Part shown: positions 12,425-57,149 of the stretch, piece by piece
Layout of the letters: the number at the start of each line of letters is the position of its first letter
Numbering within the stretch: position 1 is the stretch's first letter
Assembly (NCBI GenBank): GCA_964632485.1
Contig: CAZWDO010000003.1
Location: forward strand, 218,204 to 282,203
Origin: an uncultured bacterium
GTDB taxonomy: Bacteria > JAGOEH01
DNA length: 64,000 bases
Direction of reading: 5' to 3'
Notes under the pieces: generated by a model
Seen by the model: the letters and a program-made list of their open reading frames with translations, nothing else
Databases searched by the model: none
Told to the model about the DNA's origin: nothing
Translations under genes and position numbers: made by a program

Positions 12425-12592
12425 GTCATTCCGGGCTCGCGCCCGGAATCCACGGGTCACCTTCTGTCATTCCGGGCTTGACCCGGAATCCAACGATAAA
12501 CGATGGATGCCGGATCGGAGTCCGGCATGACGACGGATGATGGCATTCCGGCTTGACCGCCAGCGCGGCTCGCGCCCGGAATCCACGGGTCA
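12425..12592. repeat. Cluster of at least 4 GC-rich palindromic REP/MITE-like hairpin repeats (GTCATTCC-stem-loop-GGAATCC family)
   Basis: Perfect hairpins are present: gtcATTCCGGGCtcgcGCCCGGAATcc at 12425-12451, gtcATTCCGGGcttgaCCCGGAATcc at 12466-12491 and ATGCCGGAtcggagTCCGGCAT at 12507-12528. The segment ctcgcgcccggaatccacgggtca is duplicated at 12564-12592. Confidence 0.6.
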
Positions 12593-12605
12593 AAAAACCA
12601 ACTAT

Positions 12606-16485: not shown

Positions 16486-16810
16486 ATTGAACGCGCAGCA
16501 AATTTTTTTACTCGACAATTCAACAAATTTTTAGTCATAAATATTTTAATTTTGATTTGAGTATGTAAAGGTTTTTTTTCTAAATGAAATTCTATAGTAA
16601 GTTTAGTTGAGTTTTAAAAATTAACTTATTATTAATCAATCACATCGAAATATATTTGTTTATTAAATACACAGTATTTGCCATTTGAGGACTCGCTTTT
16701 GGCAGCAAATTTTTATATATGGACACAAATCAGACAAATTTCACTCCTGAAAGTGGTCAGGAAAAAACTTGAGTTTTAAGTTGGAATGAAAAATGCAATA
16801 TTGTACATGT

Positions 16811-26694: not shown

Positions 26695-27043
26695 GGGGGC
26701 GAACATGGTTTCGACGGGGAAAAAGAAGTGCCGGTTGCATACCGAGGACCCTGAGGCCTCGTAAAAAACAGGGAACAAGTTAGCTGCGAACGATTACTCG
26801 TACGCCATGGCTGCCTAATTCGCGGCCTCCCTATTTGCTTTCTCCCCTGATGGGAAGTGAATCGGGTCGATTAGTCAGGGTGCTGCGCAGCCCGAGTCTG
26901 AGGGTCAGGCCTAAGAACAAACAGACTGGTCAGCAGTGACGTTGGCTTTCTCTCTTACTGCTGATGAGATTAAAAGAAAGCTATGTATGTAGACGCTGGT
27001 ATGGAAGATTCTTCGGACGTGGGTTCGACTCCCACCGCCTCCA
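26695..27043 (+). ncRNA. ssrA: Transfer-messenger RNA (tmRNA, SsrA)
   Basis: The 5' end GGGGGCGAACAUGGUUUCGACGGGG is the tRNA-like acceptor/D analogue. An internal ORF follows the resume codon: GCG AAC GAT TAC TCG TAC GCC ATG GCT GCC TAA, giving tag ANDYSYAMAA. The 3' end ends GGGUUCGACUCCCACCGCCUCCA (T-arm, acceptor strand complementary to the 5' GGGGGCG, discriminator A); CCA is not encoded. Confidence 0.85.
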
Positions 27044-27046
27044 TTC

Positions 27047-27106: not shown

Positions 27107-28339
27107 ATGAAAATTCTGCACACATCCGATTGGCATTTGGGACGAAGTCTCAACGGCCGCAAACGTTATGAGGAGCAAGAGGCGTTCCTTGACTGGTTGG
27201 CTGAAACCATTGATCGTGAAGGGATCGATGCATTATTGGTGGCTGGCGATCTTTTTGACGCCAGTACTCCCAGCAACCGCGCTCAGGAACTCTATTACCG
27301 TTTTATGTGCCGAGTGGCGTCCTCGCCCTGTCGGCATGTGGTCGTTATTGGCGGCAACCATGATTCACCCTCCTTTCTTGACGCGCCCAAAGAATTGCTC
27401 AAGTCGCTGAATGTTCACGTTGTCGGCAGCATTACTGATAATCCAGACGATGAGGTGATCGCGCTCGCCGATGCGCGGGGAGCTACTGAATTGGTCGTAT
27501 GCGCCGTGCCTTACCTGCGTGATCGTGATATCCGCTCAGCGGAAGCAGGTGAGAGTATAGAGGACAAGGAACGCAAGCTGGTCGAGGGAATTCGCAATCA
27601 TTATGCAGAAGTCACGCGTTCGGCGGAATCTAAGCGCGCCGAAGCGGGCGGCAATATCCCGCTGGTCGCCATGGGGCATCTGTTCACCGCTGGTGGGTTG
27701 ACCGTCGCTGAGGACGGCGTGCGTGAACTCTATGTAGGATCGTTGGCCCATGTCCGCGCTGACAATCTGCCCGCCAGTCCTGATTATTTCGCATTGGGCC
27801 ATCTTCATGTTCCGCAAACTGTCGGCGGGTCTGATTATATCCGCTATTCCGGATCGCCCATTCCCATGGGATTTGGCGAAATCAATCATGCCAAAAGCGT
27901 GGTCATCGTGGATTTTTCGGATGGAATTCCGCCGCGGATATCGGAGATTCCCGCGCCGCTGTTTCAGCGAATGGAACGTGTTCGCGGAGATTGGTCTCAA
28001 ATTGAGGCCCGACTTCGGGAACTGGCCGCCGCCGGAGTCTCGATCTGGCTGGAAGTAGTTTATGAAAGCGACGAAATCATGGGCGATCTGCGCCAACGCG
28101 TGATGGAACGGGTCGAGAATACCTGTCTCGAAGCGCTGAACGTAAAAAATCCCCGCGCCATTGAAAAAGCCCTGGAACAATCCCAGTGCCATGAATCCCT
28201 CGAGGAATTAGATGAGTACCAGGTGTTCGAACGTCTGCTATCGTCCCGGAAGGCGCCGGAAGAGCAGAGATCGGCATTGATTCATACCTATCGCGAAGCG
28301 GTTCAGTCGCTTTACGACGATGATGCGAATGCGGAATAG
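27107..28339 (+). CDS. sbcD: Exonuclease SbcCD nuclease subunit D (Mre11-like phosphoesterase)
   Basis: RBS AGGAGG. MKILHTSDWHLG...LLVAGDLFD...VIGGNHDS are the calcineurin-like phosphoesterase motifs I-III. Confidence 0.85.
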   Translation: MKILHTSDWHLGRSLNGRKRYEEQEAFLDWLAETIDREGIDALLVAGDLFDASTPSNRAQELYYRFMCRVASSPCRHVVVIGGNHDSPSFLDAPKELLKSLNVHVVGSITDNPDDEVIALADARGATELVVCAVPYLRDRDIRSAEAGESIEDKERKLVEGIRNHYAEVTRSAESKRAEAGGNIPLVAMGHLFTAGGLTVAEDGVRELYVGSLAHVRADNLPASPDYFALGHLHVPQTVGGSDYIRYSGSPIPMGFGEINHAKSVVIVDFSDGIPPRISEIPAPLFQRMERVRGDWSQIEARLRELAAAGVSIWLEVVYESDEIMGDLRQRVMERVENTCLEALNVKNPRAIEKALEQSQCHESLEELDEYQVFERLLSSRKAPEEQRSALIHTYREAVQSLYDDDANAE

Positions 28340-28348
28340 GAGGATTTG

Positions 28349-31300
28349 ATGCGAATATTGCATATTCGATTCAGGAATTTAAATTCATTGGTTGGGGAAT
28401 GGTGTATCGATCTGACCCATCCCGAGATTGTTTCAAATGGGATTTTTGCGATCGTGGGTCCCACGGGTTCCGGAAAAACGACGATACTCGACGCCATCTG
28501 CCTGGCGCTTTATGGCTGCACTCCTCGCTTGGGGAAAATCAGTTCCAGTGATAATGAAATTATGTCCCGTCAAACCGTTGAGTGTTATGCCGAAGTAACT
28601 TTCGAGACCCAGAAAGGGCGCTATCGCTGTCACTGGAGCCAGCATCTGGCGCGACGAAAACTCTCGGGTCCCTTGCAACAGCCTCGGCATGAACTGGCCG
28701 ATGCCAGTGTTGAACCCGCGAGGGTTTTGGCCAACGGCAGTGAAGTGGTCAAGTGCGTCGAGGAAGCGACGGGCATGGACTTCGGACGTTTCACCCGTTC
28801 CATGCTGCTCGCTCAGGGCAATTTCGCCGCTTTTCTGCAATCGAAAAGCGATGATCGTTCCGCTCTGTTGGAAGAGATTACCGGTACAGATATATACAGC
28901 CGCATTTCACTGCGTGTTCATGACCGGCGCAAGGCGGAACGCGATAAACTGGACCTAATGAATGATAAAGCGGAAGAGATTGAACTGCTCTCTTCCGAAG
29001 ATGAACGGCAACTGGCGGCGGCCTTGGAAATTGATGCTAAACGGGAACAGGAACTCAACGCTGAAATCGGACTCAGGAATCAGGCGATTGTGTGGCTTGA
29101 TGGCATGGTGCGTTTGGAAGAGGAGCTGATAAAGATCGATGAATTGCAAGGGGCTTGGGAAACGCGCATGGCAGCGTTCGCTCCGGAACGGGAACGACTC
29201 CGGCTTGCCCGGTTGGCGGGGGAACTCGAGATTGATTTTAAAAATTTAAGCCGTAGTCGCCGGGAATTTGAAGAAATCCGGCGCCAACTGGATGAAAAAC
29301 AATCCTCTCTGCCGAAGGTTGAAGCGGACGTTTTTCTGGCTGATGATGCGATGAAAGCGGCGAACGATCGCCTGAATGCCGCTAAACTGGAACGTCAAAA
29401 CATGAAACCGGTTATCGATAAAGCTCGTGAGTTGGATACGAAGATTGTCGAAAAGGAAGTTCCGATTCGTACGCAAAGAGACGATTTCCATAGGAGTGAA
29501 TCCGAGCTGGGGCGGATGACTGAGCAGCGGGATGAGATCGCCTCGCAGCTCGGGCGAAGCAGCCATACCTTTGATCAGTTGCTGCAATGGCAGGAGCGAA
29601 ATTCGGCAGATGAGCGCTTGATCAAACAGCTTAGCGCGATTGAAAATCGTTTTGACGCCCTACGGGAGTCTCATCATCGCTACCGCAATAGCCTGCAAGA
29701 ATCAGGGAACGCCGAAAAGCAATTGCAAGCCGAGACTTGGCTTATGCAAAAAGCGCAGGAAAAACTGAAGCGCCGCCAGGAGGAACTGGAACGAATTCAG
29801 CAGGAGCTGTCCGTTGGGGAAAGAGAATGTAAACTCTTACTTGGCGATCAGGTGTTAGCCGGATGGCGGAACCGGCAAATACGATTGATTGAGCGCAAGG
29901 AATTACTCAATCGCCTCGGAGAGGCATTGCGGCGCGTCGGTGAGTCGGAAGCTGTTATCGAGAAATCGGAAGGCCGGGACCGGGGAAGTCAGACGCAGTA
30001 TGACGAATTGAATACTCGCTTGGCCGGTTTGATGGAAAAACGCCCGACGTTGGAATCGGAAGTTGAACTGCTGGAAAATCAATTGCTTCTGCTCAAACGG
30101 ATTGAGGATTATGAGACTGCCCGCCACCAGTTAATGGACGGAGAGCCCTGCCCTTTGTGCGGCGCAAGGCAACATCCCTTCGCCCAGGGCAATATCCCTG
30201 TTCCCGATGCCACGCGCCAGCGTCTGGATGCCGCGCGCGGTGAGTTGAAATCGGTTAGCGACGCGCTATCCAAGCTCCGAATCCGACTGGCGCAACTTGA
30301 TCAGGAGCTGAAACATGAAGAAGCGAAACGCCGGGAACATCGCGAACGCATAGCAGCCGCTCGCGCGAATATAGCCGAAATATGCGAACAAGTGCCGGAT
30401 GAACTGAATGTGAGCGCAGGAGATCCCGATTTGTCCTCGAATATTGAGCGCTTGCGGAACGAAAATCAGCAGGAGTGGAATCAAGTATCAAAAATTGTCG
30501 AATCCGCTGAAAGCCTCGAAACTCAATTGCAAACTCTTCATCAATCCCTGCTGAAAACAGGAAAGGCGGTCGGGCAGGCCGAACGCGAAATGGGGGACGC
30601 TATGCATCGACGGAATTTGACAGATCAGTCCCTCTCACGTCTGAAAAGCGAAATGGAAACGCTAGGCCTCCGTAATGAAGAAACTCTCACCGCGTTGAAC
30701 CGGGAAGTGGAGTTTTTCGGGATAAAGGACTTAACGATCGATAGACTGGATTCTGTGAAAACTGCGCTGAAAGAGCGATGCGAACAGTGGCAGGTTAAGA
30801 GTCGGGAACGGGACGACCTTGAGAGAAAGATCGCCAAGTTGGAAAACTCGGCGGTTGCGTTATCGGAAAGCATGGAAAAAACAGAAACGGAACTGAACGC
30901 TAAACGGCGGCAATTGGAAATTCTGGAACGTGAACAGGAGGAGTTGCATCGGGAACGGTGGGACCTCTTTGGCGACAAGCGCCCCTTTGATGAGGAAATG
31001 CGCCTGGATGCGGCTATTGCTTCTGCGGAAGATGACTCTGATAAAATCCGAGATCGACTTTCCAAAGCGCGCGAGTGGCTTGGCGGGGTGCGCGCCGCTA
31101 TGGAACAGTTGACGATACGCTTGCGTGAACGGGAGGCGCAGGTAGAGTCAGAAACTGGGCAATTCCGGAAACGGTTGGAGGAAAAAGGATTCGTCAATGA
31201 GGAAGGTTATCTGGGCGTTTGTTTGACGGCCGTTGAACGGGGGAATCTCGAACAGCGCGAGCGGATCCTGGCCGATGAGAATCTCGAATTGTCGTCCCGA

Positions 31301-32053
31301 CGGCGCGAGAAATCGGATCAGTTGGACTTGGAACGCCGGAAGCGGATCACGGAAGAGGAGTACACAGCGCTCCGGGAAGCGATAGTTATGCTAGGCGATG
31401 AGCAACGGCAAGCGCAGCAGCGGATCGGCGCTGTCCGCCAGCGGCTCGCTGAAAATGAAGGCAGAAAACAGCGCTGGCAGGAACAGATGGATGCGATTAC
31501 CGCGCAACGGTTAGAATGCGCGCGGTGGGACGAGTTGCATGCGCTGATCGGTTCGTCCGATGGCAAGAAATACCGCAATTTCGCCCAGGGGCTGACGTTC
31601 CAGGTCATGGTCAATCACGCCAATGATCAATTGCAGAAAATGAGCGATCGCTATTTGTTGACCAGGGATAGAGGGGAACCATTGGAATTGAAAGTGATGG
31701 ATGCCTATCAGGCCGGAGAGGAGCGTTCCACCCGTAATCTCTCGGGTGGTGAAAGTTTTATTGTTAGTCTGGCCTTGGCCCTGGGGCTTTCCCGCATGGT
31801 GAGCCGCAATGTGCGGGTCGATTCGCTGTTTCTGGACGAGGGTTTCGGTACGTTGGACCCGGAAGCGTTGGATATGGCCCTCAACACACTCTCCAATTTG
31901 CAACAGGATGGTAAGCTGATCGGGATCATCTCCCATGTGGGGGCCATGCGCGACCGGATATCCGCCAGGATTCAGGTTAAACCGGTTTCCGGCGGGTGGA
32001 GTCTTTTGGAGGGCGCGTGTATTTCTCGTCCGAGTCAAGCTTCGAAAACGTAA
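28349..32053 (+). CDS. sbcC: Exonuclease SbcCD ATPase subunit C (Rad50-like SMC)
   Basis: Walker A GPTGSGKTTILDAICLALYG, a long coiled coil, the zinc hook CPLCGARQHP, the signature LSGGESFIVSLALALGL and Walker B SLFLDEGFGTLD. Confidence 0.85.
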   Translation: MRILHIRFRNLNSLVGEWCIDLTHPEIVSNGIFAIVGPTGSGKTTILDAICLALYGCTPRLGKISSSDNEIMSRQTVECYAEVTFETQKGRYRCHWSQHLARRKLSGPLQQPRHELADASVEPARVLANGSEVVKCVEEATGMDFGRFTRSMLLAQGNFAAFLQSKSDDRSALLEEITGTDIYSRISLRVHDRRKAERDKLDLMNDKAEEIELLSSEDERQLAAALEIDAKREQELNAEIGLRNQAIVWLDGMVRLEEELIKIDELQGAWETRMAAFAPERERLRLARLAGELEIDFKNLSRSRREFEEIRRQLDEKQSSLPKVEADVFLADDAMKAANDRLNAAKLERQNMKPVIDKARELDTKIVEKEVPIRTQRDDFHRSESELGRMTEQRDEIASQLGRSSHTFDQLLQWQERNSADERLIKQLSAIENRFDALRESHHRYRNSLQESGNAEKQLQAETWLMQKAQEKLKRRQEELERIQQELSVGERECKLLLGDQVLAGWRNRQIRLIERKELLNRLGEALRRVGESEAVIEKSEGRDRGSQTQYDELNTRLAGLMEKRPTLESEVELLENQLLLLKRIEDYETARHQLMDGEPCPLCGARQHPFAQGNIPVPDATRQRLDAARGELKSVSDALSKLRIRLAQLDQELKHEEAKRREHRERIAAARANIAEICEQVPDELNVSAGDPDLSSNIERLRNENQQEWNQVSKIVESAESLETQLQTLHQSLLKTGKAVGQAEREMGDAMHRRNLTDQSLSRLKSEMETLGLRNEETLTALNREVEFFGIKDLTIDRLDSVKTALKERCEQWQVKSRERDDLERKIAKLENSAVALSESMEKTETELNAKRRQLEILEREQEELHRERWDLFGDKRPFDEEMRLDAAIASAEDDSDKIRDRLSKAREWLGGVRAAMEQLTIRLREREAQVESETGQFRKRLEEKGFVNEEGYLGVCLTAVERGNLEQRERILADENLELSSRRREKSDQLDLERRKRITEEEYTALREAIVMLGDEQRQAQQRIGAVRQRLAENEGRKQRWQEQMDAITAQRLECARWDELHALIGSSDGKKYRNFAQGLTFQVMVNHANDQLQKMSDRYLLTRDRGEPLELKVMDAYQAGEERSTRNLSGGESFIVSLALALGLSRMVSRNVRVDSLFLDEGFGTLDPEALDMALNTLSNLQQDGKLIGIISHVGAMRDRISARIQVKPVSGGWSLLEGACISRPSQASKT

Positions 32054-43154: not shown

Positions 43155-44107
43155 GCTCTTCTCGATCGAAATATTTCTGGTTTTGGTTAAAACTCACCAT
43201 TACCGCTCTATTGATCCTTTTTTTGATTTGTATGTTCGATTGGAATCGGATTTTCGATATCATTCAACATTTATCGATATTCGATCTGTTTATAGCGGCA
43301 TTTGTCTGGATTATTTCACTTTTAGTAACAACTTCACGTTGGTATATCCTGAGTATTCCTCTGCAATGCAACACGCGATTTTGGCAATTGTTCCGGTTTT
43401 ATTATATCGGATTCTTTTTCAATACTTTTTTACCTTCCAGTATTGGGGGTGATCTTTACCGTATCTATCGTGTTAATAAAGAATTATCTTCGAAAAGCCA
43501 GGCAGCGGCCCTTGTTTTTGTAGAGCGCTTGATCGGTTTTTTTGCAATTGCTTTTATGGCCTCATTTTCGCTCTTTTTTATTCAAATCAACAAATTCAGT
43601 AATGAGTTCCGCTATCTTGCGTTTGGTTCTTTTTTAATCTTGTTAGCTGTTCTGCTCTTGAGTTTCAATGAACGGGTTATACTCCACATGTCGCGGTTGT
43701 TGAAAAAAATTTCTTATTTTCATCTTGGTGAACGGTTGAATCAGTTTTATGAAAAAATTTACCATTTTCGTAATTATAAATTATATTTATATATGGGTTT
43801 TATCATTTCCATTATTTATCAGTTGATTGTGATTTATCTTTTTTATTTTGTCGCGCGGGCTATGGATTATACAATAGGATATATGTATATGGTTTTATTC
43901 GTTTCACTATCGAGTATTGTCAGTCTGATTCCTTTCAGCTTGGGCGGGTTCGGATATCGGGAGATCAGCTATGCGCTACTCTTTCAGGCGATCGGTTTAG
44001 CGCGTGAAGATGGAATTGCTTTGTCAATAATCGTCGTAGTGATAACTTCAATCATCAATGCCGGGGGAGGTATTTTTTATATATTGGATAAAAATTTAAA
44101 AAGTTGA
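43151..44107 (+). CDS. UPF0104/flippase-like (lysyl-PG synthase TM-domain-like) membrane protein
   Basis: Multi-TM protein; the ...FLPSSIGGDLYRIY... motif is characteristic of the TIGR00374/LPG_synthase_TM family. ATGA-coupled upstream. Confidence 0.6.
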   Translation: MSSSRSKYFWFWLKLTITALLILFLICMFDWNRIFDIIQHLSIFDLFIAAFVWIISLLVTTSRWYILSIPLQCNTRFWQLFRFYYIGFFFNTFLPSSIGGDLYRIYRVNKELSSKSQAAALVFVERLIGFFAIAFMASFSLFFIQINKFSNEFRYLAFGSFLILLAVLLLSFNERVILHMSRLLKKISYFHLGERLNQFYEKIYHFRNYKLYLYMGFIISIIYQLIVIYLFYFVARAMDYTIGYMYMVLFVSLSSIVSLIPFSLGGFGYREISYALLFQAIGLAREDGIALSIIVVVITSIINAGGGIFYILDKNLKS

Positions 44108-44152
44108 CAGATACTGAAAATGGATTATATTAAATAAAAAAGGAGGGTCTGC

Positions 44153-44968
44153 ATGGCTAATGATAAAGTTGATCTGAGATCAAAAGATGATCTGGTTGAA
44201 CGCTTGCGGATGTCGATTGACAAATTAAGTTATTTTATTCGCATCGCCGAAGAGATCGCTGAGAATAAAAGTTTATCTCCTCAAGTGCAGGAATTTATTG
44301 AGGTGCTGAAGGATATCAGGATGGTGCCGGATGAATTGGGATCAACGCCATTGTTAATTGAAGAAACGATCAAATTTGTGGAAGGAATTGTGGGAGAAGT
44401 CCACCTTGTTCGAGTTCAGATTGAAAATAGTTTTTCTGAAAGCGGGGCATTAAAAACAGCGGTGCAAACTCTGGATCTGATTCCCGATTCGACCTTACGC
44501 GCGACAGACCAGATACTGAATACTTTGGACAATATCATGGCGCGGGAAGGTGAAATGTCGGAAATTATCAATCAACTGACTGAGAAAAAATCGGAATTCG
44601 ATGAAACGATGCAAGGGAATGTTGATCGGTTGCAGGAAATATTTACTGAGAATCAAAACGAACATTTTGCGATCATGGATGCGCTTCAGTTCCAGGATAT
44701 TACTACCCAGCAAATTCAGCATGTGAATGATTTGCTTGAAAATACTGAAAAAAAATTGAATGAACTGGCTTTGAAATTGAAGGGACTTGATGAAGCGGAT
44801 ATTCGCAATATTATCAAGGCAGCATCAAAACCGGAACGGGTTTATGACCCGAACGCTGAATTCAAGCATCGCGAATCCGAACAGAACTTTGCGGATGAGT
44901 TGTATGAGCAAAAAGAAACGATGAAGCAGGACGATATTGAATCTCTTTTATCGCAATTCGGGAAATAG
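44153..44968 (+). CDS. Acidic coiled-coil hypothetical protein with a CheZ-like phosphatase active-site motif
   Basis: ALQFQDITTQQIQHV, compared with E. coli CheZ DFQDLTGQVIKR (catalytic D and Q with identical spacing). Otherwise predicted helical. Confidence 0.35.
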   Translation: MANDKVDLRSKDDLVERLRMSIDKLSYFIRIAEEIAENKSLSPQVQEFIEVLKDIRMVPDELGSTPLLIEETIKFVEGIVGEVHLVRVQIENSFSESGALKTAVQTLDLIPDSTLRATDQILNTLDNIMAREGEMSEIINQLTEKKSEFDETMQGNVDRLQEIFTENQNEHFAIMDALQFQDITTQQIQHVNDLLENTEKKLNELALKLKGLDEADIRNIIKAASKPERVYDPNAEFKHRESEQNFADELYEQKETMKQDDIESLLSQFGK

Positions 44969-44973: not shown

Positions 44974-45348
44974 ATGCAATTGGCTGAATTAATCGAAAAA
45001 CTCCAGGGGGTTTGGTTGACGAAGGAAATACAAAGCGCGGTTGATGTCCATTATGTGGGGGCCGCTGATTTGATGAGCGATATTTTAGCGTTAACTTCCC
45101 ATCCCATGTTGTTGATCACCGGATTGACCGCTATTCAAACCGTACGAACCGCTGAAATGTCCGGGCATATTCAGGCAATTGTGTTTGTGAGGGGGAAAAA
45201 CGCCGATATCAATACAATCCGTTTAGCTGAAGAAAACGAAATTCCATTAATTACTACCCGTTTGACAATGTATGAATGCTGTGGTATTCTATATCAGGCG
45301 GGGATATTACCAGTTCCTTTAAAGCAACACCATGATACAAGCCTTTAA
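44974..45348 (+). CDS. DRTGG-domain protein
   Basis: HPMLLITGLTAIQTV...IQAIVFVRG...IPLITTRLTMYE matches the DRTGG fold pattern. Confidence 0.5.
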   Translation: MQLAELIEKLQGVWLTKEIQSAVDVHYVGAADLMSDILALTSHPMLLITGLTAIQTVRTAEMSGHIQAIVFVRGKNADINTIRLAEENEIPLITTRLTMYECCGILYQAGILPVPLKQHHDTSL

Positions 45349-45790
45349 TAATGGCACAATCCGTGTCAAGTTTTCCATTCTTAAAGATTTTTCTTCGGCG
45401 GGTAATGCTTCTTCCGGTTTAAAGAAGATTTTAAAATCGGTGGGAATCGTTCCTGATTTGATTCGGCGGGCAGCAATTGCCTCTTTTGAAGCTGAGGTGA
45501 ATGTTGTCGCTCATGCCAACGGCGGAGAGATGGATGTCTTGATTTCGCCTGAAAAGCTGACGGTAGTAATTCGTGATAAAGGACCCGGTATTCCGGATAT
45601 TGAAAAAGCGATGACTCCCGGTTTTTCTACAGCGAATGATGAAGTTCGCAGTATGGGGTTTGGCGCGGGGATGGGGTTACCCAATATTAGAAGTAATACC
45701 GATGAAATGCGCATCGATACAGAATTGGGCATCGGTACAGTATTAACCTTTGTGATTTTTCTGCAAGGAGATGGGCGTGCGGTCACATAG
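45332..45790 (+). CDS. Anti-sigma-factor-like serine kinase (GHKL ATPase, RsbW/SpoIIAB family)
   Basis: EAEVNVVAHANGGEMDV...IRDKGPGIPDIEKA...GFGAGMGLPNI are the N-, G1- and G2-boxes. Confidence 0.6.
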   Translation: MIQAFNNGTIRVKFSILKDFSSAGNASSGLKKILKSVGIVPDLIRRAAIASFEAEVNVVAHANGGEMDVLISPEKLTVVIRDKGPGIPDIEKAMTPGFSTANDEVRSMGFGAGMGLPNIRSNTDEMRIDTELGIGTVLTFVIFLQGDGRAVT

Positions 45791-46994
45791 TATTCAGTTA
45801 TTGGAAGAACGGTGCCTGGGGTGTACCAATTGCTTAAAAGTCTGCCCGGTGCAAGCCATTCGGGTTCGTGACGGAATTGCGCATATTAACGAGAAGCTAT
45901 GCATCGATTGTGGCGAATGTGTCCGGGTTTGCCCCTATCATGCGCATGAAATTATTACAGACGATCTGTCGCTGGCGCGGAAAAGCTCTTTTCGGGTTTT
46001 GATTGTTCCGACAAGTTTTTGGGGCCAGTTTCCGTTGCTTCCTGTGGAGTTGATCCTGGCCGCTCTCGAGCAACTGGGATTCCAGGCTGTTATCAGCGAG
46101 AATGTCGGATTTTCCCTTTTTGAACAACAACTACATAAATATTTGCAGGAGCATTCCTATTCCAATCGCACCTATATATTACCGAATTGTCCGGCCGTTG
46201 TCCGTTTAATCTTCATCCGCTTTCCCAGCCTTATCGCTCATATCCTGCCGGTAAAAAATACGTTAGAAATGACGGCGGCCTATGCCGATTACTACTTTCG
46301 AGATGTTCTGCATATTCCTGACCCGTCTATTTTTTATTTAAGCACATGTTCGGCTAAGGTTACCGCTATCAGTTCTCCGATTGGTGAACGCAATTGCATA
46401 GTGAAAGGCGCTTTTTCCATTAAGACGTTGTTTAACCGGATTAAGGCCATGGAAAGTCAAAAGCCGGTTTTAAGCGAGAAATTTATATTTTTATATACGC
46501 CTTTTCAGCGGACAACCATTTTGAATGAATATGACCGGTTAAATCTGACGGGAGTGGATTATATTCTGGATATTTTTGATAAGCTCGAAAACAATCAAAA
46601 CTATCAATTAGATCTGATTAACCCGTATTATTGTGTGAATGGATGCCGCAATGGCATTTTACAGGTTCAGAATCCATTTTTAGCCAAGAAATTTTTATCC
46701 CGTAAAAATTGGATTCGTGAGCCTTTGGATGTTAAATTGAGCGATTTGCCCTTTGATTTGTATTTATCGCAGAATATTCACCAAATCCGTCTGGTGGAAG
46801 AGGAGACCGATTTGCTTTCAAAGCTTCAACGCTTACAAAAAATAGAGGATTTATATCGCAACTTACCCCATTTGGATTGTGGCAGTTGCGGTTCGCCAAA
46901 TTGTTATGCGTTTGCAGAAGATGTTGTCCAGTGCCAAGCCCAAATCTCGATGTGCGCGTTCCATCAAAATGAGGAGGCGGAAAATCATGACTGA
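45771..46994 (+). CDS. [FeFe]-hydrogenase-like Fe-S protein (two ferredoxin 4Fe-4S motifs, degenerate H-cluster domain, C-terminal Cys-rich Fe-S domain); likely sensory/regulatory
   Basis: CLGCTNCLKVCP and CIDCGECVRVCP. Hydrogenase-like segments LPNCPAV / STCSAK / CVNGCRNG are in the positions of motifs L1-L3 but incomplete. The C-terminus reads LDCGSCGSPNCYAFAEDVVQC. Confidence 0.55.
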   Translation: MGVRSHSIQLLEERCLGCTNCLKVCPVQAIRVRDGIAHINEKLCIDCGECVRVCPYHAHEIITDDLSLARKSSFRVLIVPTSFWGQFPLLPVELILAALEQLGFQAVISENVGFSLFEQQLHKYLQEHSYSNRTYILPNCPAVVRLIFIRFPSLIAHILPVKNTLEMTAAYADYYFRDVLHIPDPSIFYLSTCSAKVTAISSPIGERNCIVKGAFSIKTLFNRIKAMESQKPVLSEKFIFLYTPFQRTTILNEYDRLNLTGVDYILDIFDKLENNQNYQLDLINPYYCVNGCRNGILQVQNPFLAKKFLSRKNWIREPLDVKLSDLPFDLYLSQNIHQIRLVEEETDLLSKLQRLQKIEDLYRNLPHLDCGSCGSPNCYAFAEDVVQCQAQISMCAFHQNEEAENHD

Positions 46995-47331
46995 TTTGAA
47001 ATCGATTGTACAAGCGCTTCAATTGACTGTGGTTACAGGGCTCGAACAATTAGACCGTCCTGTAACCGGTGTGTATATTTCCGACTTATTGAGTGATGTG
47101 ATGGGGAAGTCGCAAAGCGGCCAACTCTGGTTGACGATACAGGGCCATACTAACGTAGTTGCCGTAGCGGTTTTAAAGGATTTACAGGGAATCATCCTGA
47201 CCGGCGGCAATGAATTTGATGCGGGAGCGATTCAAAAAGCGAAGGATGAGGAAATTATACTGTTGAAATCGACGCTTTCCACGTACGCCGTGGCATGCGC
47301 TCTGTTTCAGCAGGGTCTTTTGCCTGAATGA
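46987..47331 (+). CDS. DRTGG-domain protein (second copy)
   Basis: LTVVTGLEQ...HTNVVAVAVLKDLQGIILTGGNEFD; start inferred at the ATG overlapping the upstream stop. Confidence 0.5.
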   Translation: MTDLKSIVQALQLTVVTGLEQLDRPVTGVYISDLLSDVMGKSQSGQLWLTIQGHTNVVAVAVLKDLQGIILTGGNEFDAGAIQKAKDEEIILLKSTLSTYAVACALFQQGLLPE

Positions 47332-48047
47332 ATCCATTTCCGATCGACCTGCATATTCATTCTGTGCTCTCTCCCTGCGCGGATTTAAATATGTCTCCAC
47401 GGATGATTGAACCGTTTTTAGTGAAATATGGGATTCGTATGATAGCGATCGCCGATCATAATTCTGTGTTGAATTATCCGGCATTTGTTCAGTTCGAACA
47501 GCGAGGAATCACCATCATTCCGGCAATGGAGCTGACTACACGTGAAGAACTGCATTTGTTGTGCTATTTTCCGGACTATGCATCGGCATTGCGCTGGCAA
47601 AGCCGCGTGGACCAATTGAGACTTCCGTTGCCAAATTCCTCCGGACTGTTTGGAGAACAATTGATTATCAATGAGAATGAAGAGATCATCGGCGAAGAGC
47701 CGATCCTGCTCAACCAGGCGATTGCAATTTCGCTGGAGGATGCCGTTGAGAGTATTCATCAGTTGGGCGGGCTTGCGGTTCCGGCGCATGCGGAAAAACC
47801 GCGGTTCAGTGTTGTTTCCCAATTGGGATTTCTACCGTCCGATCTGGCGGTGGACGGATTGGAACTCTTTGATCCCCAGTCGCTCGACATTTATCAGACA
47901 CACTATTCTGTGATTTTTTCTTCCGATGCTCATGCGTTGGAGATGTTAAGGCCGCCGCGTACCTGTTTGTGGGCGGAACGTCCGGTTTTTGACGAGTTGA
48001 AATTGGCTTTTGCGCGTCAGGCTGGAAGGTATTTTCAAACATTATGA
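47328..48047 (+). CDS. PHP-domain phosphoesterase
   Basis: IDLHIHSVLSPCAD...IADHN...AHAEKP give the His/Asp-rich PHP signature. ATGA coupling. Confidence 0.65.
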   Translation: MNPFPIDLHIHSVLSPCADLNMSPRMIEPFLVKYGIRMIAIADHNSVLNYPAFVQFEQRGITIIPAMELTTREELHLLCYFPDYASALRWQSRVDQLRLPLPNSSGLFGEQLIINENEEIIGEEPILLNQAIAISLEDAVESIHQLGGLAVPAHAEKPRFSVVSQLGFLPSDLAVDGLELFDPQSLDIYQTHYSVIFSSDAHALEMLRPPRTCLWAERPVFDELKLAFARQAGRYFQTL

Positions 48048-48616
48048 TGAAAGAAATTTCCCTTCATCTGCTGGATTTACTCGAGAACTGTGTGAAGGCA
48101 GAAGCCACCTGCGTTTCTCTGGCAATATCCATCGATACGCGTATGGACCGATTGTCGGTGGAACTGAAGGATAATGGTAAAGGAATTCCGCCTGCAATGC
48201 TGGATAAAGTGTTTGACCCTTTTTATACCACGCGAACAACCCGGCGAATCGGTTTAGGCCTGCCCTTGATCCGTCAGACAGTAGAGGCTTGTGAAGGTTC
48301 CCTAACACTCGATTCCCATGAAGGGGAGGGAACTGAATTGTGTTTCCAGATGCGTTACTCGCACTGGGATCGGCCCCCCATGGGGAATCTGGTCGATACG
48401 TTGCTAACTTTTTTAATTGGAAATAAATATATTGACTTTTATTATAAACATGATTATAATAAGTCGTTATTTGTTTTTTCAACGAAGGATTTGGAAGCGG
48501 AACTTGGAGATTTGGGGTTTCTGGATCAACCGGAAGTATATGAATTTTTGCGTCAATATTTGTGGGAAAACTTAACCGCTATTTATGGAGGAGATACTAA
48601 TGAAGTCACTAGCTGA
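48044..48616 (+). CDS. GHKL-type ATP-binding protein (histidine-kinase-like ATPase, no HisKA)
   Basis: HLLDLLENCVKA...LKDNGKGIP...RRIGLGLPLIRQ. ATGA coupling. Confidence 0.55.
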   Translation: MMKEISLHLLDLLENCVKAEATCVSLAISIDTRMDRLSVELKDNGKGIPPAMLDKVFDPFYTTRTTRRIGLGLPLIRQTVEACEGSLTLDSHEGEGTELCFQMRYSHWDRPPMGNLVDTLLTFLIGNKYIDFYYKHDYNKSLFVFSTKDLEAELGDLGFLDQPEVYEFLRQYLWENLTAIYGGDTNEVTS

Positions 48617-48977
48617 TTTACGAGCGATCAAGGAAAAGGCTTTGAAGAATATGCAATCGCGGGAGAGTGGGCAGGCAAGATTTCGGATTGTGGTTGGAAT
48701 GGGAACCTGTGGGATTGCTGCTGGCGCGCGCGATGTTTTACGGGCAATTATGGATGAAATCCAAAAACGGGATTTGATCAACGATGTGGTTGTAACTCAG
48801 AGCGGTTGCGCCGGGTTTTGTACCAATGAGCCTATGATCGTCGTCCACGATGCTAAGGGCAATCAGGTCACTTATGAATTAGTTGATCCCGAAAAGATTT
48901 GTCGGATTTTCGATGATCATATTGGCCGTAATGTTGTCGTTAGCGAATATGTTTTCAATATTCAAACCAAAGGGTAA
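48600..48977 (+). CDS. Thioredoxin-like [2Fe-2S] ferredoxin (NuoE/HndA-related small subunit)
   Basis: RBS GGAGGA before ATG 48600. VGMGTCGIAAGA...QSGCAGFCTNEPMIVV resembles the NuoE-type cluster-binding segments. Confidence 0.5.
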   Translation: MKSLADLRAIKEKALKNMQSRESGQARFRIVVGMGTCGIAAGARDVLRAIMDEIQKRDLINDVVVTQSGCAGFCTNEPMIVVHDAKGNQVTYELVDPEKICRIFDDHIGRNVVVSEYVFNIQTKG

Positions 48978-48985
48978 TTTGGGTG

Positions 48986-49204
48986 ATGAGTAAGCTCAGT
49001 TTTGAGGAAAATCTTTCCCAACTTGAAAAAATTGTGGAGCAGATGGAGAAAGGCAATGTGACTCTGGAGGAATCGCTGGAACTTTTTGAAAAAGGGATCA
49101 AACTTACGCATGAATGTCAAAAATCTCTCGATAAAGCAGAAACGAAAGTTCGAACTCTGATCAAAGATGAGGCTGATGGGTATCAATTACAATTGTTGGA
49201 TTGA
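48986..49204 (+). CDS. xseB: Exodeoxyribonuclease VII small subunit
   Basis: SFEENLSQLEKIVEQMEKGNVTLEESLELFEKGIKL is a canonical XseB sequence. Confidence 0.8.
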   Translation: MSKLSFEENLSQLEKIVEQMEKGNVTLEESLELFEKGIKLTHECQKSLDKAETKVRTLIKDEADGYQLQLLD

Positions 49205-52122: not shown

Positions 52123-53790
52123 ATGAACTATGAAGAGATGAAAAACCGTCAGGATGAGTGGCGGGAAAAAACACTGAAAAAATTTGTTGCCAAAGTACCG
52201 GAGCAGCGTTCTGTATTCCTTACCGGTTCATCGGAAGAAGTGGATACTCTTTATACTCCAGTTGATGTTAATGCTGACACATATTTGGATGAAATTGGAT
52301 TCCCCGGCCAGTACCCCTTTACTCGGGGTATTTATCCCAATATGTATCGCGGCCGTTTTTGGACCATGCGTCAATATGCAGGTTTTGGAACGGCAGAGCA
52401 ATCCAATCAACGCTACAAATATTTGTTGGAACAAGGTCAAACCGGACTTTCCGTTGCTTTTGATCTGCCTACCCAGATTGGTTATGATTCCGATCACCCT
52501 TTATCCGAAGGTGAAGTGGGAAAGGTGGGCGTCGCCATTGACAGTTTACATGATATGGAAATTCTTTTCGATGGGATTCCCCTGAATAAGGTTTCCACGT
52601 CGATGACAATTAATGCGCCGGCGGCGATTCTTCTCGCTATGTTAATCGCGGTGGCGGAAAAACAGGGAGTGCCGGCATCCGAATTGCGGGGGACGATTCA
52701 AAATGATATTTTAAAAGAGTATATCGCCCGGGGCACTTATATATTCCCCCCCAAGCCTTCTATGCGTTTAATTGTTGATACTTTTGCCTATTGCGCCAAG
52801 GAATTGCCTAAATGGAATACGATCAGTATAAGTGGGTATCATATTCGTGAAGCGGGATCAACAGCCGCGCAGGAAGTGGCGTTTACGCTAGCCGATGGAA
52901 TTGAGTATTGTCGGGCGGCGCAGAAAGCGGGTATGGATATAGACGAATTTGCCGGCCAGTTGAGTTTTTTCTTTAATGCCCATAACGATTTGCTGGAAGA
53001 AGTCGCCAAGTTCCGAGCGGCTCGACGACTTTGGGCAAAAATCATGAAAGACAAACTACAGGCCAAAAATCCCAAGTCCATGATGCTGCGCTTCCATACG
53101 CAGACCGCCGGTTCAACCTTGACGGCTCAGCAACCGGAAAATAACGTCATTCGCGTTACACTTCAAGCGTTAGCCGCTGTGCTGGGGGGTACGCAGAGTC
53201 TGCATACAAATTCATTGGATGAAGCGCTGGCGCTTCCTACGGAAAAATCAGTTCAAACTGCTTTGCGCACTCAACAGGTAATCGCGCATGAATCAGGCGT
53301 GATTAGTAATGTTGATCCGTTGGCTGGTTCCTATTATGTTGAATCCCTGACTGATAAAATCGAAAATCAAGCCCGCGCTTATATTGAAGAAATTGAAGGG
53401 ATGGGCGGGATGGTCGGCGCTATTGAACGTGGATATGTCCAAAAAGAGATTCAACGCTCTGCCTATCAGTACCAACAGCAGATTGAGAAACAGGAACGGA
53501 TTATTGTTGGGATGAACAAATTTTCAGTAAAGGAAGAACCGCCAAAAGACCTTTTAAAAGTTGATCCTGCGATTCAGGGAACACAAATAGACAAAATCGA
53601 AGCTGTTAAAAACCGTCGGAACGCTGACGAAGTCCAGAGAATTTTAAGGGAAATCGAAATCGCTGCGCAGGGGACGGATAATCTGTTGCCTTTGTTTGTA
53701 AAAGCGGTAAAAGCCTATGCGACTCTGGGTGAAATTTGCGGCGCATTACGCGCGGTTTTTGGCGAATATGAAGCTCAAGTCTTTTTTTAA
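52123..53790 (+). CDS. Methylmalonyl-CoA mutase, large (catalytic, TIM-barrel) subunit
   Basis: [53 protein letters not shown] is a signature MCM substrate-domain sequence. Confidence 0.85.
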
Positions 53791-53801
53791 GGAGAGATGC
53801 T

Positions 53802-54215
53802 ATGGATAAAAATAAAATTCGGATTTTAATCGCAAAAGCGGGCCTGGATGGCCATGATCGGGGCGCTAAATATATCGCCCAGGCTTTGCGTGATCGCGGG
53901 TATGAAGTCATCTATACTGGAATTCGTAAAACTCCGGAGGAAATTGCTAATATTGCCATCCAGGAAGACGCGCGTTTTGTGGGATTGAGCCTGCTCTCAG
54001 GCGCTCATAATCAGCTTTTTCCCAAGGTTGTCCAATTGCTGATGGAAAAAGGCGCGGATGATATTATCGTTTTTGGTGGCGGAGTGATCCCCGTTGATGA
54101 TATTCCCTTTCTTAAGAGCCAGGGTATCCGGGGAGTTTTTGGTCCCGGCACCACAATCGATGAGATGGAAATTTTTATCGATGAATGTTTGAACGAGAGA
54201 GCTGCGTTTGCATAA
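53802..54215 (+). CDS. Methylmalonyl-CoA mutase B12-binding subunit
   Basis: IRILIAKAGLDGHDRGAKYIAQALRDRGYEVIY gives the DxHxxG cobalamin-binding motif. Confidence 0.85.
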   Translation: MDKNKIRILIAKAGLDGHDRGAKYIAQALRDRGYEVIYTGIRKTPEEIANIAIQEDARFVGLSLLSGAHNQLFPKVVQLLMEKGADDIIVFGGGVIPVDDIPFLKSQGIRGVFGPGTTIDEMEIFIDECLNERAAFA

Positions 54216-54216
54216 T

Positions 54217-55203
54217 ATGGAGCAATTGGCGGAAGGATTTCGCCGTCGCGAGTTGCGCGCCTTAGCCAGGGCTATAAGCTTAGCTGAAAATGATCCTGTT
54301 TCTGCCAGCGTGTTTATAAAGAATTTTGCTTCATCCCCAATGACCGGTTCTGGCCGGCCCAGCCGAGTGATTGGGTTGACCGGCGCTCCGGGAGCGGGAA
54401 AGAGTACCCTAATTCGGGCGTTGCTGGAAGAAAGTCAAAAAAATGAACAACGTATCGCCGTTCTGGCAGTGGACCCCAGCAGTCCTTTCTCCGGTGGCGC
54501 GCTGCTGGGTGACCGATTGCGCATGACAGTGAAAAATTGGGATCCCGAACGTGTGTTTATTCGTAGCCTTTCCGCCCGGGGACATTTGGGTGGACTTTCT
54601 CAAGGGATTCGAACTTCCATTCGATTGCTTCAATATTACGATTTTGACTGGATTTTGCTGGAAACTGTTGGGGTCGGGCAGGATGAAATTGAAGTGGTCT
54701 ATTTAGCCGATTGCGTGATTGTGGTTTTAGTACCGGGTTTGGGCGATGAAATCCAGGCAATGAAAGCGGGATTGATGGAAATCGCCGACCTTTTTGTCGT
54801 CAATAAATGTCTGAATAGTGGCGCGGATAAACTGGTGGGTGAGCTGGAAGGAATGATCGCCTTTTCACCCCGCTATGAACAACCTGGAATCTGGCGGCCT
54901 CCGGTAAAGGTTACAGATGCCTTGCATTGTATTGGAATTAACGAACTTTGGGAAACGTTACCACAACTCTTTAACGATCCGTTATTTAAAGGGCATTACC
55001 AAAAAAAAGTTGCGCGGCAGTATCGTTTTTATATTGAGAACAGTGTGCATGCGGCGTGTGATTATTGGCTGAAAAAAAAATTAGATGAGGTTGAATGGCA
55101 TGAATTGGACGAGAAACAGTTTTTACTTTTAGCCGAACAGACATTGGATGAAGTTACCGAATCATTATATATGCAAAGGAGTTATTATGTTAAAAAAAAT
55201 TGA
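54217..55203 (+). CDS. meaB: Methylmalonyl-CoA mutase-associated GTPase MeaB/ArgK
   Basis: GLTGAPGAGKSTLI (P-loop), LETVGVGQDE and VVNKCL. Confidence 0.85.
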   Translation: MEQLAEGFRRRELRALARAISLAENDPVSASVFIKNFASSPMTGSGRPSRVIGLTGAPGAGKSTLIRALLEESQKNEQRIAVLAVDPSSPFSGGALLGDRLRMTVKNWDPERVFIRSLSARGHLGGLSQGIRTSIRLLQYYDFDWILLETVGVGQDEIEVVYLADCVIVVLVPGLGDEIQAMKAGLMEIADLFVVNKCLNSGADKLVGELEGMIAFSPRYEQPGIWRPPVKVTDALHCIGINELWETLPQLFNDPLFKGHYQKKVARQYRFYIENSVHAACDYWLKKKLDEVEWHELDEKQFLLLAEQTLDEVTESLYMQRSYYVKKN

Positions 55204-55597
55204 CCATATCGGGATCGCGGTCAGTTCATTGAGCGAGAGTGTCCCCGTTTTCCAGAAGATGGGGTTGAGCTATTTGGGAGAAGAAGAAGTGGCAGAACAA
55301 AAAGTAAAAGTAGCGTTTTTTGATATTGGCGGTGTACATATTGAATTACTGGAACCAACCGCCCCAGATAGCCCCATCGCGATCTTTCTTGAAAAAAAAG
55401 GTCAGGGCATTCATCATCTGGCCCTCGAATCAGATGGTCTGGAACAGGAAATTAACCAATTGATCAGTAATGGAATCAGTATGATTGACATGAAACCCCG
55501 GACGGGAGCCCATAATAGCAAGATCGCTTTTATTCATCCCAAATCGAGCGCAAAGGTATTAACTGAATTATGCGAACACTGTAGCGAGGGACATTGA
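55187..55597 (+). CDS. mce: Methylmalonyl-CoA epimerase (VOC/glyoxalase fold)
   Basis: IDHIGIAV...HIELLEP...GIHHLA. Start inferred at the ATG with an AAAGGAG RBS. Confidence 0.8.
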
Positions 55598-55598
55598 G

Positions 55599-57149
55599 AT
55601 GGCGATGAATGAGGCGATTCAAGAATTGAATGAACGGCGGAATCGCGCGTTGCTGGCCGGTGGAGAAAAAAGGTTGAGTTCCCAGCGTCAAAAAGGGAAA
55701 ATGACAGCGCGTGAACGCATCGAGACGCTTTTAGATGCCGATAGTTTTGTTGAATTGGATATGCTTAAGCAGCATCGGTGTCATGATTTTGATTTGGAGA
55801 ATGAAAAATATCTGACTGATGGAGTGATCACTGGTTTCGGCCGGATTCAGGGTCGGAAGGTTTTTGTTTTTTCACAGGATTTTACAATTTTTGGCGGTTC
55901 TCTTTCGGCAACCTTTGCCGAAAAAATCAATAAAATTATGGATTTAGCGGCGAAAACCGGATGTCCCGTCATCGGTCTCAATGATTCAGGTGGCGCTCGT
56001 ATCCAGGAAGGAATGGAATCTCTGGCCGGTTATGCGGAAATTTTCTTGCGGAACGTGATCTATTCAGGAGTGGTGCCCCAAATCAGCGTGATTATGGGAC
56101 CTTGCGCGGGTGGAGCTGTATATTCTCCCGCTATCACCGATTTTATTATAATGGTTAAGGATATCAGCTATATGTTTGTGACCGGCCCTAAAGTCGTTAA
56201 AACAGTTACCAATGAAGAAGTGACAACTGAGGAGCTGGGCGGCGCAATGATCCATGCAGGGAAAAGCGGTGTAACTCATTTTGTTGCTCAAAATGATCAG
56301 GACGCTTTAGAATTATTGAGGCGTCTGCTTGGTTATTTGCCGTCTAATAATGTTGAAAATCCGCCTTTTATATCCAATTCTGATCCTCTCGATCGCCTGA
56401 CTCCTGAATTGAATGCGCTGATTCCTGAGAATCCGAATAAACCTTATGATATGCGGGTTGTAATTTTACGCACGGTGGATAATGGAGAGTTCCTCGAAGT
56501 CCACCGCAACTGGGCTGAAAATATTATCGTTGGATTTGCCCGTTTAGGTGGATATTCAATTGGTATAATCGCCAATCAACCAATGGTTATGGCGGGTGTG
56601 CTGGACAATAACAGCTCACGCAAGGCGGCTCGTTTTGTGCGGTTTTGCGATGCATTTAATATTCCGCTGGTGACGTTTGTGGATGTGCCGGGTTTTATGC
56701 CGGGAACCATCCAGGAATATAATGGAATTATCATCAATGGCGCCAAATTATTGTATGCGTATGCCGAAGCAACCGTACCCAAACTGACGGTCATTACGCG
56801 TAAAGCTTATGGTGGGGCGTATGATGTAATGAGTTCAAAGCATATTCGCGGGGATCTCAATTTTGCCTGGCCGACCGCTGAAATTGCCGTTATGGGCCCT
56901 AAGGGGGCTGTGGAAATCCTTTATGCCAAGCAGATCAAAGCCGCTGTGAATGGAGTGGAAGAAGCCGCCCAACTGGAAGAAGAGTATCGACGCCTGTTCG
57001 CAAATCCTTGGCGCGCAGCGGAGCGCGGCTATGTGGATGATGTTATTGAACCCATGGGTACGCGGCTGATGCTGATCCGCGGATTGCAGATGCTCGAAAA
57101 TAAACATGATGAAAACCCACCTCGCAAACATGGTAATATACCCTTGTAA
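55599..57149 (+). CDS. Methylmalonyl-CoA carboxyltransferase (propionyl-CoA carboxylase beta / methylmalonyl-CoA decarboxylase alpha family)
   Basis: Two crotonase-like CT domains: ...GGARIQEG...[13 protein letters not shown]... and GGAYDVM. Confidence 0.85.

Follow-up and report, generated by a model that had tools for sequence, protein, structure and literature searches.

The closest described relatives of the gene cluster considered here are the putative sensory [FeFe] hydrogenases of group D, also termed M2e, which are defined as lacking a PAS domain, as carrying two N-terminal [4Fe-4S] motifs and a C-terminal Cx2Cx4Cx16C motif, and as having lost the proton-relay Cys299 and exchanged Met353 for Ser or Thr (PMC8163306). 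TamHydS is the sole characterised member (PMC8163306, PMC13104023), and according to the 2026 TamHydS study the native complex and the protein partners are unknown (PMC13104023). Group D examples such as Cthe_0335, Athe_1292, TTE0887 and Teth39_1463 adjoin kinase-like genes and bifurcating hydrogenases (PMC8163306, PMC13104023, PMC3561251), and a location directly upstream of bifurcating hydABC genes has been described as occurring "often" (PMC8163306). The cluster analysed here occupies positions 44974-48977 of a 64,000-nucleotide stretch, hereafter the window, of contig CAZWDO010000003.1 from an uncultured bacterium (assembly GCA_964632485.1), and we conclude that it belongs to this known but mechanistically unsolved system. 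Its unusual feature appears to be a remodelled H-site shared by a rare, deep-branching clade of sensor proteins and not, as might be thought at first sight, its missing hydrogenase.

The cluster consists of seven co-directional open reading frames (ORFs) on the + strand with ends overlapping by 4-20 nucleotides (nt), and domain matches and orthology agree in upholding the gene content and order of the original prediction. The genes are listed here with their product lengths in amino acids (aa) and the one-letter shorthand used below:

44974-45348, + strand: DRTGG single-domain protein 1 (D), 124 aa; Pfam DRTGG 21.5 bits, under the gathering score of 25.2
45332-45790, + strand: RsbW/SpoIIAB-like GHKL protein (W), 152 aa; HATPase_c_2 37.7 bits (above the gathering score), HATPase_c 38.7 bits
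45771-46994, + strand: divergent group D (M2e)-type [FeFe]-hydrogenase-like Fe-S protein (HydS-like; S), 407 aa; two 4Fe-4S motifs, Fe_hyd_lg_C, PF04060
46987-47331, + strand: DRTGG single-domain protein 2 (D), 114 aa, likewise 114 aa in the JGI call; Pfam DRTGG 25.0 bits
47328-48047, + strand: PHP-family phosphoesterase (P), 239 aa; Pfam PHP 18.9 bits, a weak match
48044-48616, + strand: stand-alone GHKL ATPase (G), 190 aa; HATPase_c 73.1 bits; counterpart of tte0891
48600-48977, + strand: Trx-like, HydD-like [2Fe-2S] ferredoxin (Fdx; F), 125 aa; 2Fe-2S_thioredx 25.8 bits

The locus thus reads D-W-S-D-P-G-F, and xseB (76.6 bits) starts at 48983, 6 nt past the last cluster gene, followed by ispA at 49201. 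Public gene calls on the source contig agree with these frames, except that genes 3, 4 and 7 start slightly later; the JGI call for the HydS-like protein starts at 45777 and gives 405 aa, while the longest ORF of the ferredoxin gene begins at 48585. Several of the domain scores are weak, and this holds also for the more specific NCBIfam models, since the RsbW-like gene scores 47.8 (TIGR01925, SpoIIAB; cut-off 135), 27.7 and 26.4 bits with the SpoIIAB/RsbW equivalog models, far under their cut-offs of 135-155, and since the ferredoxin gene scores 45.8 bits with NF041612, under its cut-off; the PHP gene matches PHP-containing NCBIfam models at 1e-11 to 1e-5. The assignments are nonetheless rescued by the fact that each gene matches the gene at the same position in 40-75 loci and keeps the conserved residues. 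The first DRTGG gene is the unambiguous ortholog of the first gene of the D-W-S-D-P core in 71 other loci and retains the family-conserved motifs SDLMSD, LxTGL, RTAEM and VFVRGK, the RsbW-like protein keeps its N-box and its DxGxG and GFGAGMGLPN boxes as in 75 orthologs, and the second DRTGG gene is orthologous to the gene directly after HydS in 72 loci. The PHP protein has the motifs DLHIHS, DHNS and SSDAH in common with 74 orthologs, the HxH, DHN and SSDAH metal ligands being retained, 44 loci have an ortholog of the GHKL ATPase gene, situated between NuoE and Fdx, and the ferredoxin gene is orthologous to a gene of about 121 aa preceding HydB in 40 loci, with its TCGIAAGA and GC..C motifs kept. 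According to the ortholog alignments neither GHKL protein has lost its ATP-binding boxes, and the cysteines of the ferredoxin and the family motifs of the DRTGG proteins are kept as well.

By its sequence the 407-aa protein appears to belong with the group D (M2e) putative sensory [FeFe] hydrogenases, that is the TamHydS family, as a deep-branching and rare clade. Pfam finds two Fer4 domains, Fe_hyd_lg_C (a partial match, limited to residues 93-198) and, at the C-terminus, the Fe-S domain PF04060, but no PAS domain, and its closest homologs all have this Fer4 / Fe_hyd_lg_C / PF04060 architecture. The protein ends 12 residues past C395 and is without the C-terminal PAS domain of group C. The C-terminal motif C370-x2-C373-x4-C378-x16-C395 is invariant in 69 sequences, the H-site cysteines C140, C193, C288 and C292 do not vary in alignments of 20, 69 and 85 sequences, and the N-terminal cluster cysteines C15/18/21/25 and C44/47/50/54 are likewise invariant, so that 16 Fe-S cysteines are kept altogether. 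Against a profile of 81 typical group D proteins the protein scores 346.7 bits over its full length, but only 27.5 bits against a profile of bifurcating group A HydA, for which the typical group D proteins span 48.6-103.3 bits. The AlphaFold2 model is confident (predicted local distance difference test, pLDDT, 92.4; predicted TM score, pTM, 0.90), and its top Foldseek matches in the PDB are the [FeFe] hydrogenases DdH, CbA5H, HDCR HydA2 and CpI, with a TMq of about 0.6 and 15-18% identity.

The protein has few close relatives. In a neighbour-joining tree rooted on HydA and containing no group C sequences it falls in a monophyletic clade of four members that is sister to all 81 typical group D sequences, and the identity of the clade to typical group D proteins, 27.6-35.9%, lies below the 38.7% minimum among the typical members, which come from five phyla (Bacillota, Spirochaetota, WOR-3, Atribacteria and Armatimonadota). 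When 1.84 billion representatives were searched exhaustively with HMMER, the clade came back as one 50% cluster at 519.9 bits, with the next match at 250.5 bits and 33% identity, and no intermediate sequences were found; in a word-indexed search the clade appears as four 90%-clusters. A scan of JGI metagenomes with clade-specific patterns added no further contexts, its only matches being L090, a relative that was already known and lies on the contig of L005, and L093, a fragment with 41% identity. The possibility that long homologs of the protein conceal a group C identity was rejected, as the ten longest carry fused DRTGG or HATPase_c_2 domains or otherwise no PAS domain.

The H-site of the protein departs from the canonical pattern, also at positions that are conserved in group D. 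The degenerate H-cluster motifs of the original prediction were found indeed, with L1 reading LPNCPAV, L2 STCSAK and L3 NPYYCVNGCRNG, so that the 407-aa protein is without complete canonical H-cluster motifs. The position of Cys299 (CpI numbering) is Asn in the LPN-C-P of L1, where typical group D has Ala, and that of Met353 is Ser in the S-T-C of L2. Further changes are present in all four clade members, at positions that are conserved in typical group D and in six aligned group A HydA. The Pro of the K-S-P-(Q/M)-E motif, found in 81/81 group D and 6/6 group A sequences, is T or S in the clade, the Pro of the A-P-S/A motif (76/81 in group D) is lost in three of the four members, and the (W/F)-x-x-(S/T)-G-G-E/V motif, with W and the second G each in 81/81, is gone, its loss being accompanied by a deletion of about 15 residues. 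The Glu preceding L3, again 81/81 in group D, is N or D, the conserved G-G-C-V-G-G has become x-G-C-x-N-G, and PxISSACP has become (T/S)xI(L/I)P(N/D)CP. In group A enzymes such as CpI the altered segments line the [2Fe] subsite, a correspondence that was verified with alignments to DdH and HDCR HydA2. Typical orphan loci, meaning group D loci without an adjacent hydrogenase, keep fully canonical group D motifs, and the divergence therefore belongs to this lineage and not to orphan status as such. It should also be mentioned that the bifurcating HydA proteins encoded beside typical group D modules (L010-L087) themselves have TSCSPGW as L1 instead of the textbook TSCCPxW, and that the same L1 is found in HydA1 of Acetobacterium woodii (PDB 7q4v_A).

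The absence of a neighbouring hydrogenase is real. The original prediction, that NuoF and HydA genes are lacking and that xseB comes next, stood up, because phmmer searches with queries from typical loci found no homologs of NuoE, NuoF/HydB or HydA among window ORFs of at least 60 aa, and there are no HydA or NuoF homologs in the 9.6 kb past the window end. Pfam listings, which cover the 35.8-57 kb region and ten large ORFs from other parts of the window (a few window ORFs being outside the listings), the stretch of about 11 kb of L088 and the 9.6 kb beyond the window end, contain no hydrogenase, recognisable Hyd maturase, STAS, PP2C or sigma-factor genes. The cluster lies at about 49.4-53.4 kb within a 316,795-bp contig (JGI Ga0207193_1000008) and hence in its interior, and three independent relatives have the same seven genes, order and flanks, with sensor proteins 53-60% identical to that of the window. 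These relatives are a Candidatus Delongbacteria metagenome-assembled genome (GCA_017997825.1), the closest one to bear a name, and a second lineage that was assembled three times. GKRP-like, LPG synthase and CheZ-like genes form the upstream flank common to the window and the relatives and xseB-ispA the downstream one, while an AmiA-like gene lies between these upstream genes in the window and L002 but not in L003-L005. Since the same Fdx-xseB junction recurs in the independent assemblies L002 and L003/L004, no contig break can be hiding hydBA, as had been considered, and an assembly artefact is excluded by this recurrence together with the interior position. A second sample (ENA ERZ27262927) also contains contigs that encode proteins identical to those of the window, and the same or a very close strain has thus been assembled twice.

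The missing hydrogenase, the headline of the original prediction, is however not a peculiarity of this locus. We surveyed 80 species-representative loci from GTDB genomes, a non-random set made up of the best 80 tblastn matches, with ORFs labelled by phmmer; all of them are typical group D and no Delongbacteria loci are among the GTDB matches listed. The core D-W-S-D-P is found in 56 of the 66 loci with enough flank. Where at least 6.5 kb could be read downstream, hydB and hydA follow in 27 of 57 loci, hydA lies within the upstream 10 kb in three further ones, accompanied by hydB in two, a HydB-like gene is found but no hydA in three (twice followed by rnf), and the remaining 24 have nothing hydrogenase-related, which leaves 27/57 without hydA in the fetched flanks. 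Lack of an adjacent catalytic hydrogenase is thus an ordinary condition, applying to roughly half of group D loci, and hydABC adjacency, found in only 27/57 loci, does not define the family. In L023, from an Oscillospiraceae genome, the order is D-W-S-D-P-G-F, exactly the seven genes of the window cluster, before unrelated genes begin, and L045 and L053 read D-W-S-D-P-G. The GHKL gene, with or without Fdx, accompanies the sensor core rather than hydB-hydA in L017, L023, L031, L045 and L053, and its usual company is accordingly the sensor module and not hydBA. Most orphans (15/57 loci) have D-W-S-D-P but neither a ferredoxin nor a GHKL gene. No common target gene emerges among the first downstream genes of ten orphan loci, which include YicC, SurA-like, transglutaminase, GGDEF-EAL, DUF3795, ABC, malic enzyme and CNNM genes. 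A different arrangement is seen in L006/L007 (Lutispora), L012 and L058, in which D-W-S-D-P-NuoE-GHKL-Fdx-HydB-like is followed by rnfCDGEAB in place of hydA, and here the group D module may front a NuoEF-like/Rnf unit without a hydrogenase.

Natural fusions give an indication of which products act together. A DRTGG domain is fused C-terminally to HydS in five homologs (P0124, P0162, P0188, P0224 and P0267) and N-terminally in one (P0197), another (P0165) carries an N-terminal HATPase_c_2 domain, and none of the ten longest HydS homologs examined has a PAS domain. On the strength of these fusions it can be argued that HydS, the DRTGG proteins and the RsbW-like protein most likely act in one signalling complex. 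We found no mention of HydS-DRTGG or HydS-HATPase_c_2 fusions in the literature consulted, and likewise nothing usable on Delongbacteria hydrogenases or on DRTGG combined with hydrogenase.

Two further elements lie directly upstream of the cluster:

44104-44131, + strand: promoter-like site TTGACA-16-TATATT, 11/12 match to a sigma-70-like consensus
44153-44968, + strand: CheZ-like protein, 271 aa; Pfam CheZ 30.9 bits, over the gathering score (30.7)

The CheZ-like gene stops 6 nt short of the first DRTGG gene, is found at this place in the three related contexts as well (including L002 and L003) and is absent from the 80 typical group D loci, and judging by position it is possibly a clade-specific eighth gene of the unit. 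Its FQDITTQ segment and acidic C-terminal DDIESLLSQFG resemble the catalytic and CheY-binding motifs of CheZ, and a PDB sequence search with the protein gave no significant match. The promoter-like site falls in the only upstream intergenic gap, 5' of the CheZ-like gene, but it is weak evidence, because the region-wide number of such matches (37 found against 28.1 +/- 4.2) is not above chance.

As to function, we lean, with slightly better than even confidence, towards a stand-alone, divergent module of the group D (M2e) type, the sensor of which reads Fe-S redox state and not H2 by way of a canonical H-cluster. The HydS-like protein would be the sensor, with its two N-terminal [4Fe-4S] clusters, its four-cysteine H-site and its C-terminal Cx2Cx4Cx16C cluster, and its redox or ligand state would alter ATP-dependent signalling by the RsbW-like GHKL protein. 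The DRTGG proteins would serve as adaptors or substrates, the PHP esterase as the opposing hydrolase, and the tte0891-like GHKL ATPase and the HydD-like ferredoxin as accessory ATP-binding and electron-transfer partners, with the target of the signalling lying outside the cluster. Redox sensing is preferred over H2 sensing because the pocket normally holding the [2Fe] subcluster is remodelled, and a sensor with such a pocket might report the ferredoxin/NADH pool through its Fe-S redox state; that the products form a complex, that they signal by phosphorylation or in an ATP-dependent way, what they sense and what they control are all matters that we infer, as opposed to the gene set, orthology, fold, conservation pattern, synteny statistics and domain fusions, which were observed. 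The suggestion of the original prediction, that the cluster may regulate an H2- or redox-responsive function located elsewhere, is a reasonable one. Several points do however speak against our reading. The four H-site cysteines and the Lys/Arg after L2 (K196) are retained in the clade, and going by the sequence it is possible that the [2Fe] subcluster still sits in the altered pocket, although the retained cysteines do not show that it is bound, since the [4Fe-4S] part by itself requires all four. In group A enzymes, moreover, a number of the lost contacts are made by the backbone, so that changes in side chains need not abolish binding. TamHydS indeed turns over H2 despite a heavily altered pocket (PMC8163306). 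Furthermore, phosphorylation of DRTGG is not known in the literature, where DRTGG domains are described only as regulatory or oligomerisation inserts, and neither an output domain nor a target was identified.

The tolerance of TamHydS to large pocket changes (PMC8163306) and the conservation of K196 and all four H-site cysteines would also suit a genuine H2 sensor, having a complete H-cluster in a lineage-specific pocket and partners that control distal hydrogenase or fermentation genes. This is the more so as every partner is orthologous to a typical group D partner, found upstream of hydABC in 27/57 loci, and as typical orphan loci keep canonical motifs, so that orphan modules are presumably functional. 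We nevertheless consider H2 sensing rather unlikely, since positions conserved in group A (6/6) and in group D (81/81 or nearly so) are replaced in 4/4 clade members, a loop is deleted, the score with the group A profile lies below the entire typical group D range, and neither hydA, hydB nor maturase genes were found in the window genes checked or the 9.6 kb beyond. A more far-reaching version of redox sensing takes the eukaryotic Nar1/Narf proteins as its model. These share the [FeFe]-hydrogenase fold and retain all four cysteines of the [4Fe-4S]H site, but the residues that hold [2Fe] are gone. As a bacterial counterpart of these, the window protein would have lost [2Fe], would read redox through [4Fe-4S] and would signal by way of the RsbW-like, DRTGG and PHP proteins, with the CheZ-like phosphatase perhaps leading to a CheY-type regulator and to an output such as redox taxis; we offer this elaboration tentatively, and would sooner bet against it than for it. 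Nar1/Narf are cytosolic Fe-S assembly factors of eukaryotes with different termini and without kinase or DRTGG partners, and there is no evidence that the degeneration in the two groups is of common descent. The cluster could also be a small redox enzyme or electron-transfer unit, made up of the HydS-like protein, the [2Fe-2S] ferredoxin and GHKL and regulated by the kinase-like, DRTGG and PHP genes, given that a HydD-type ferredoxin co-purifies with the catalytic hydrogenase in Caldanaerobacter (PMC4694547) and that TamHydS catalyses slow, reversible H2 turnover (PMC8163306). Such a unit is made improbable by the facts that most orphan loci dispense with both the ferredoxin and the GHKL gene, that HydS is fused to DRTGG or HATPase_c_2 and hence to regulatory rather than catalytic domains, and that the HydS-like protein lacks residues of both the [2Fe] pocket and the path for proton transfer. 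The loss of family-invariant residues from the sensor might finally suggest a functionless remnant of a regulatory-plus-hydABC operon, decaying after the loss of hydC, hydB and hydA, but this is very hard to believe of seven ORFs that are intact, overlapping and co-linear in four lineages with sensors differing by 40-47%, and that keep every one of the 16 cysteines binding Fe-S clusters as well as the ATP-binding boxes in either GHKL protein. In L017, L023, L031, L045 and L053, moreover, GHKL with or without Fdx goes with D-W-S-D-P and not with hydB-hydA. Pseudogenisation itself was rejected on account of the intact ORFs and conserved ligands.

Several other features of the window deserve mention. 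A methylmalonyl-CoA mutase, its B12-binding subunit, MeaB, a glyoxalase-family gene (possibly an epimerase) and a carboxyltransferase are encoded together at 52123-57149 (+), which suggests a succinate/propionate pathway and thereby an alternative electron sink to H2. The genes at 72-10469, 10665-12326, 12537-14351 and 23769-25289 comprise a 3465-aa ORF and three further proteins, all ending in FlgD_ig / Por_Secre_tail / CHU_C type IX secretion sorting domains, and the first 10 kb of the window has a G+C content of 0.50-0.535, above most of the window. Genes for a CHASE2 histidine kinase and a sigma-54-dependent response regulator come after a Peptidase_C14 (caspase-like) gene at 16793-21458 (+). 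The sole Rfam match in the window is a full-length tmRNA gene at 26695-27046 (+; RF00023, 181.7 bits), and an sbcD/sbcC-like pair at 27107-32053 (+; Metallophos and SbcD_C; AAA_23 and SbcC_Walker_B) has a G+C content of 0.50-0.54 against 0.41-0.47 in the neighbouring genes.

With respect to group D at large, the five-gene core of DRTGG, RsbW-like GHKL, HydS, DRTGG and PHP supplies concrete partner candidates, backed by the natural fusions, and this core is separable from the hydrogenase it was assumed to regulate. The clade described here is in addition a natural experiment, in which the partners are kept and the H-site pocket has diverged, and from it one could learn if H2 chemistry is required by the module at all, or if the module is a general Fe-S redox switch.

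The comparison with known systems places the cluster at some distance from several regulatory modules that it resembles. In having a small GHKL protein of the HATPase_c_2 type, to which anti-sigma factor Ser kinases also belong, and a dedicated hydrolase in the cluster it is reminiscent of RsbW-RsbV-RsbU and SpoIIAB-SpoIIAA-SpoIIE, but DRTGG proteins and a PHP esterase stand in place of the STAS antagonist and the PP2C phosphatase and there is no sigma factor; the likeness is one of logic only. The term "partner-switching" used in the original prediction cannot be upheld as more than such an analogy, since no STAS antagonist, PP2C phosphatase or sigma factor is present among the genes checked. 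Group C (M2f), with HydS of Thermotoga maritima (TM1420-1422) and Ruminococcus albus and HfsB of Thermoanaerobacterium saccharolyticum as members, likewise comprises hydrogenase-like sensors with N-terminal clusters and a C-terminal four-cysteine cluster, the genes of which have Ser/Thr kinase or phosphatase genes close by and frequently precede hydABC, and for hfsB there is genetic evidence of a regulatory role (PMC5707799). Group C proteins however have a PAS domain, which the window protein lacks, and TM1420-1422 are classed as PAS-containing group C (PMC3561251, Table 6). The proposed comparison with T. maritima TM1420-1426 thus leads to the sister type, the window module being of the PAS-less group D (M2e) type (PMC3561251), and of the predicted match to the regulatory gene set upstream of hydABC in Clostridia and Thermotogae only the clostridial half survives, the full order D-W-S-D-P-NuoE-GHKL-Fdx-HydB-HydA being read in 27 loci.

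The last five genes of that full order correspond to hydC-tte0891-hydD-hydB-hydA, the order of the Caldanaerobacter operon (PMC4694547). By their position, genes 6 and 7 of the window cluster correspond to the GHKL ATPase gene tte0891 and to hydD, which encodes a Trx-like [2Fe-2S] ferredoxin, and their orthologs in 40-44 loci sit between NuoE and HydB just as in Caldanaerobacter, whereas the window is without hydC, hydB and hydA and GHKL, with or without Fdx, follows the sensor module and not hydB-hydA in the window clade as well as in L023, L031, L045 and L053. The closest parallel remains TamHydS of Thermoanaerobacter mathranii, a group D protein which like the window protein has two [4Fe-4S] motifs, an H-domain and the Cx2Cx4Cx16C motif, has Cys299 replaced and Met353 changed to Ser, and has no PAS domain. 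Group D loci in general share with the window cluster the flanking DRTGG, RsbW-like, DRTGG, PHP, GHKL and Fdx genes and provide the best profile match to its sensor, but the cluster differs from the hydABC-linked ones in lacking adjacent hydABC, and from typical group D as a whole in its added upstream CheZ-like gene and in that its clade is sister to the 81 typical sequences and has lost the invariants of the [2Fe] site.

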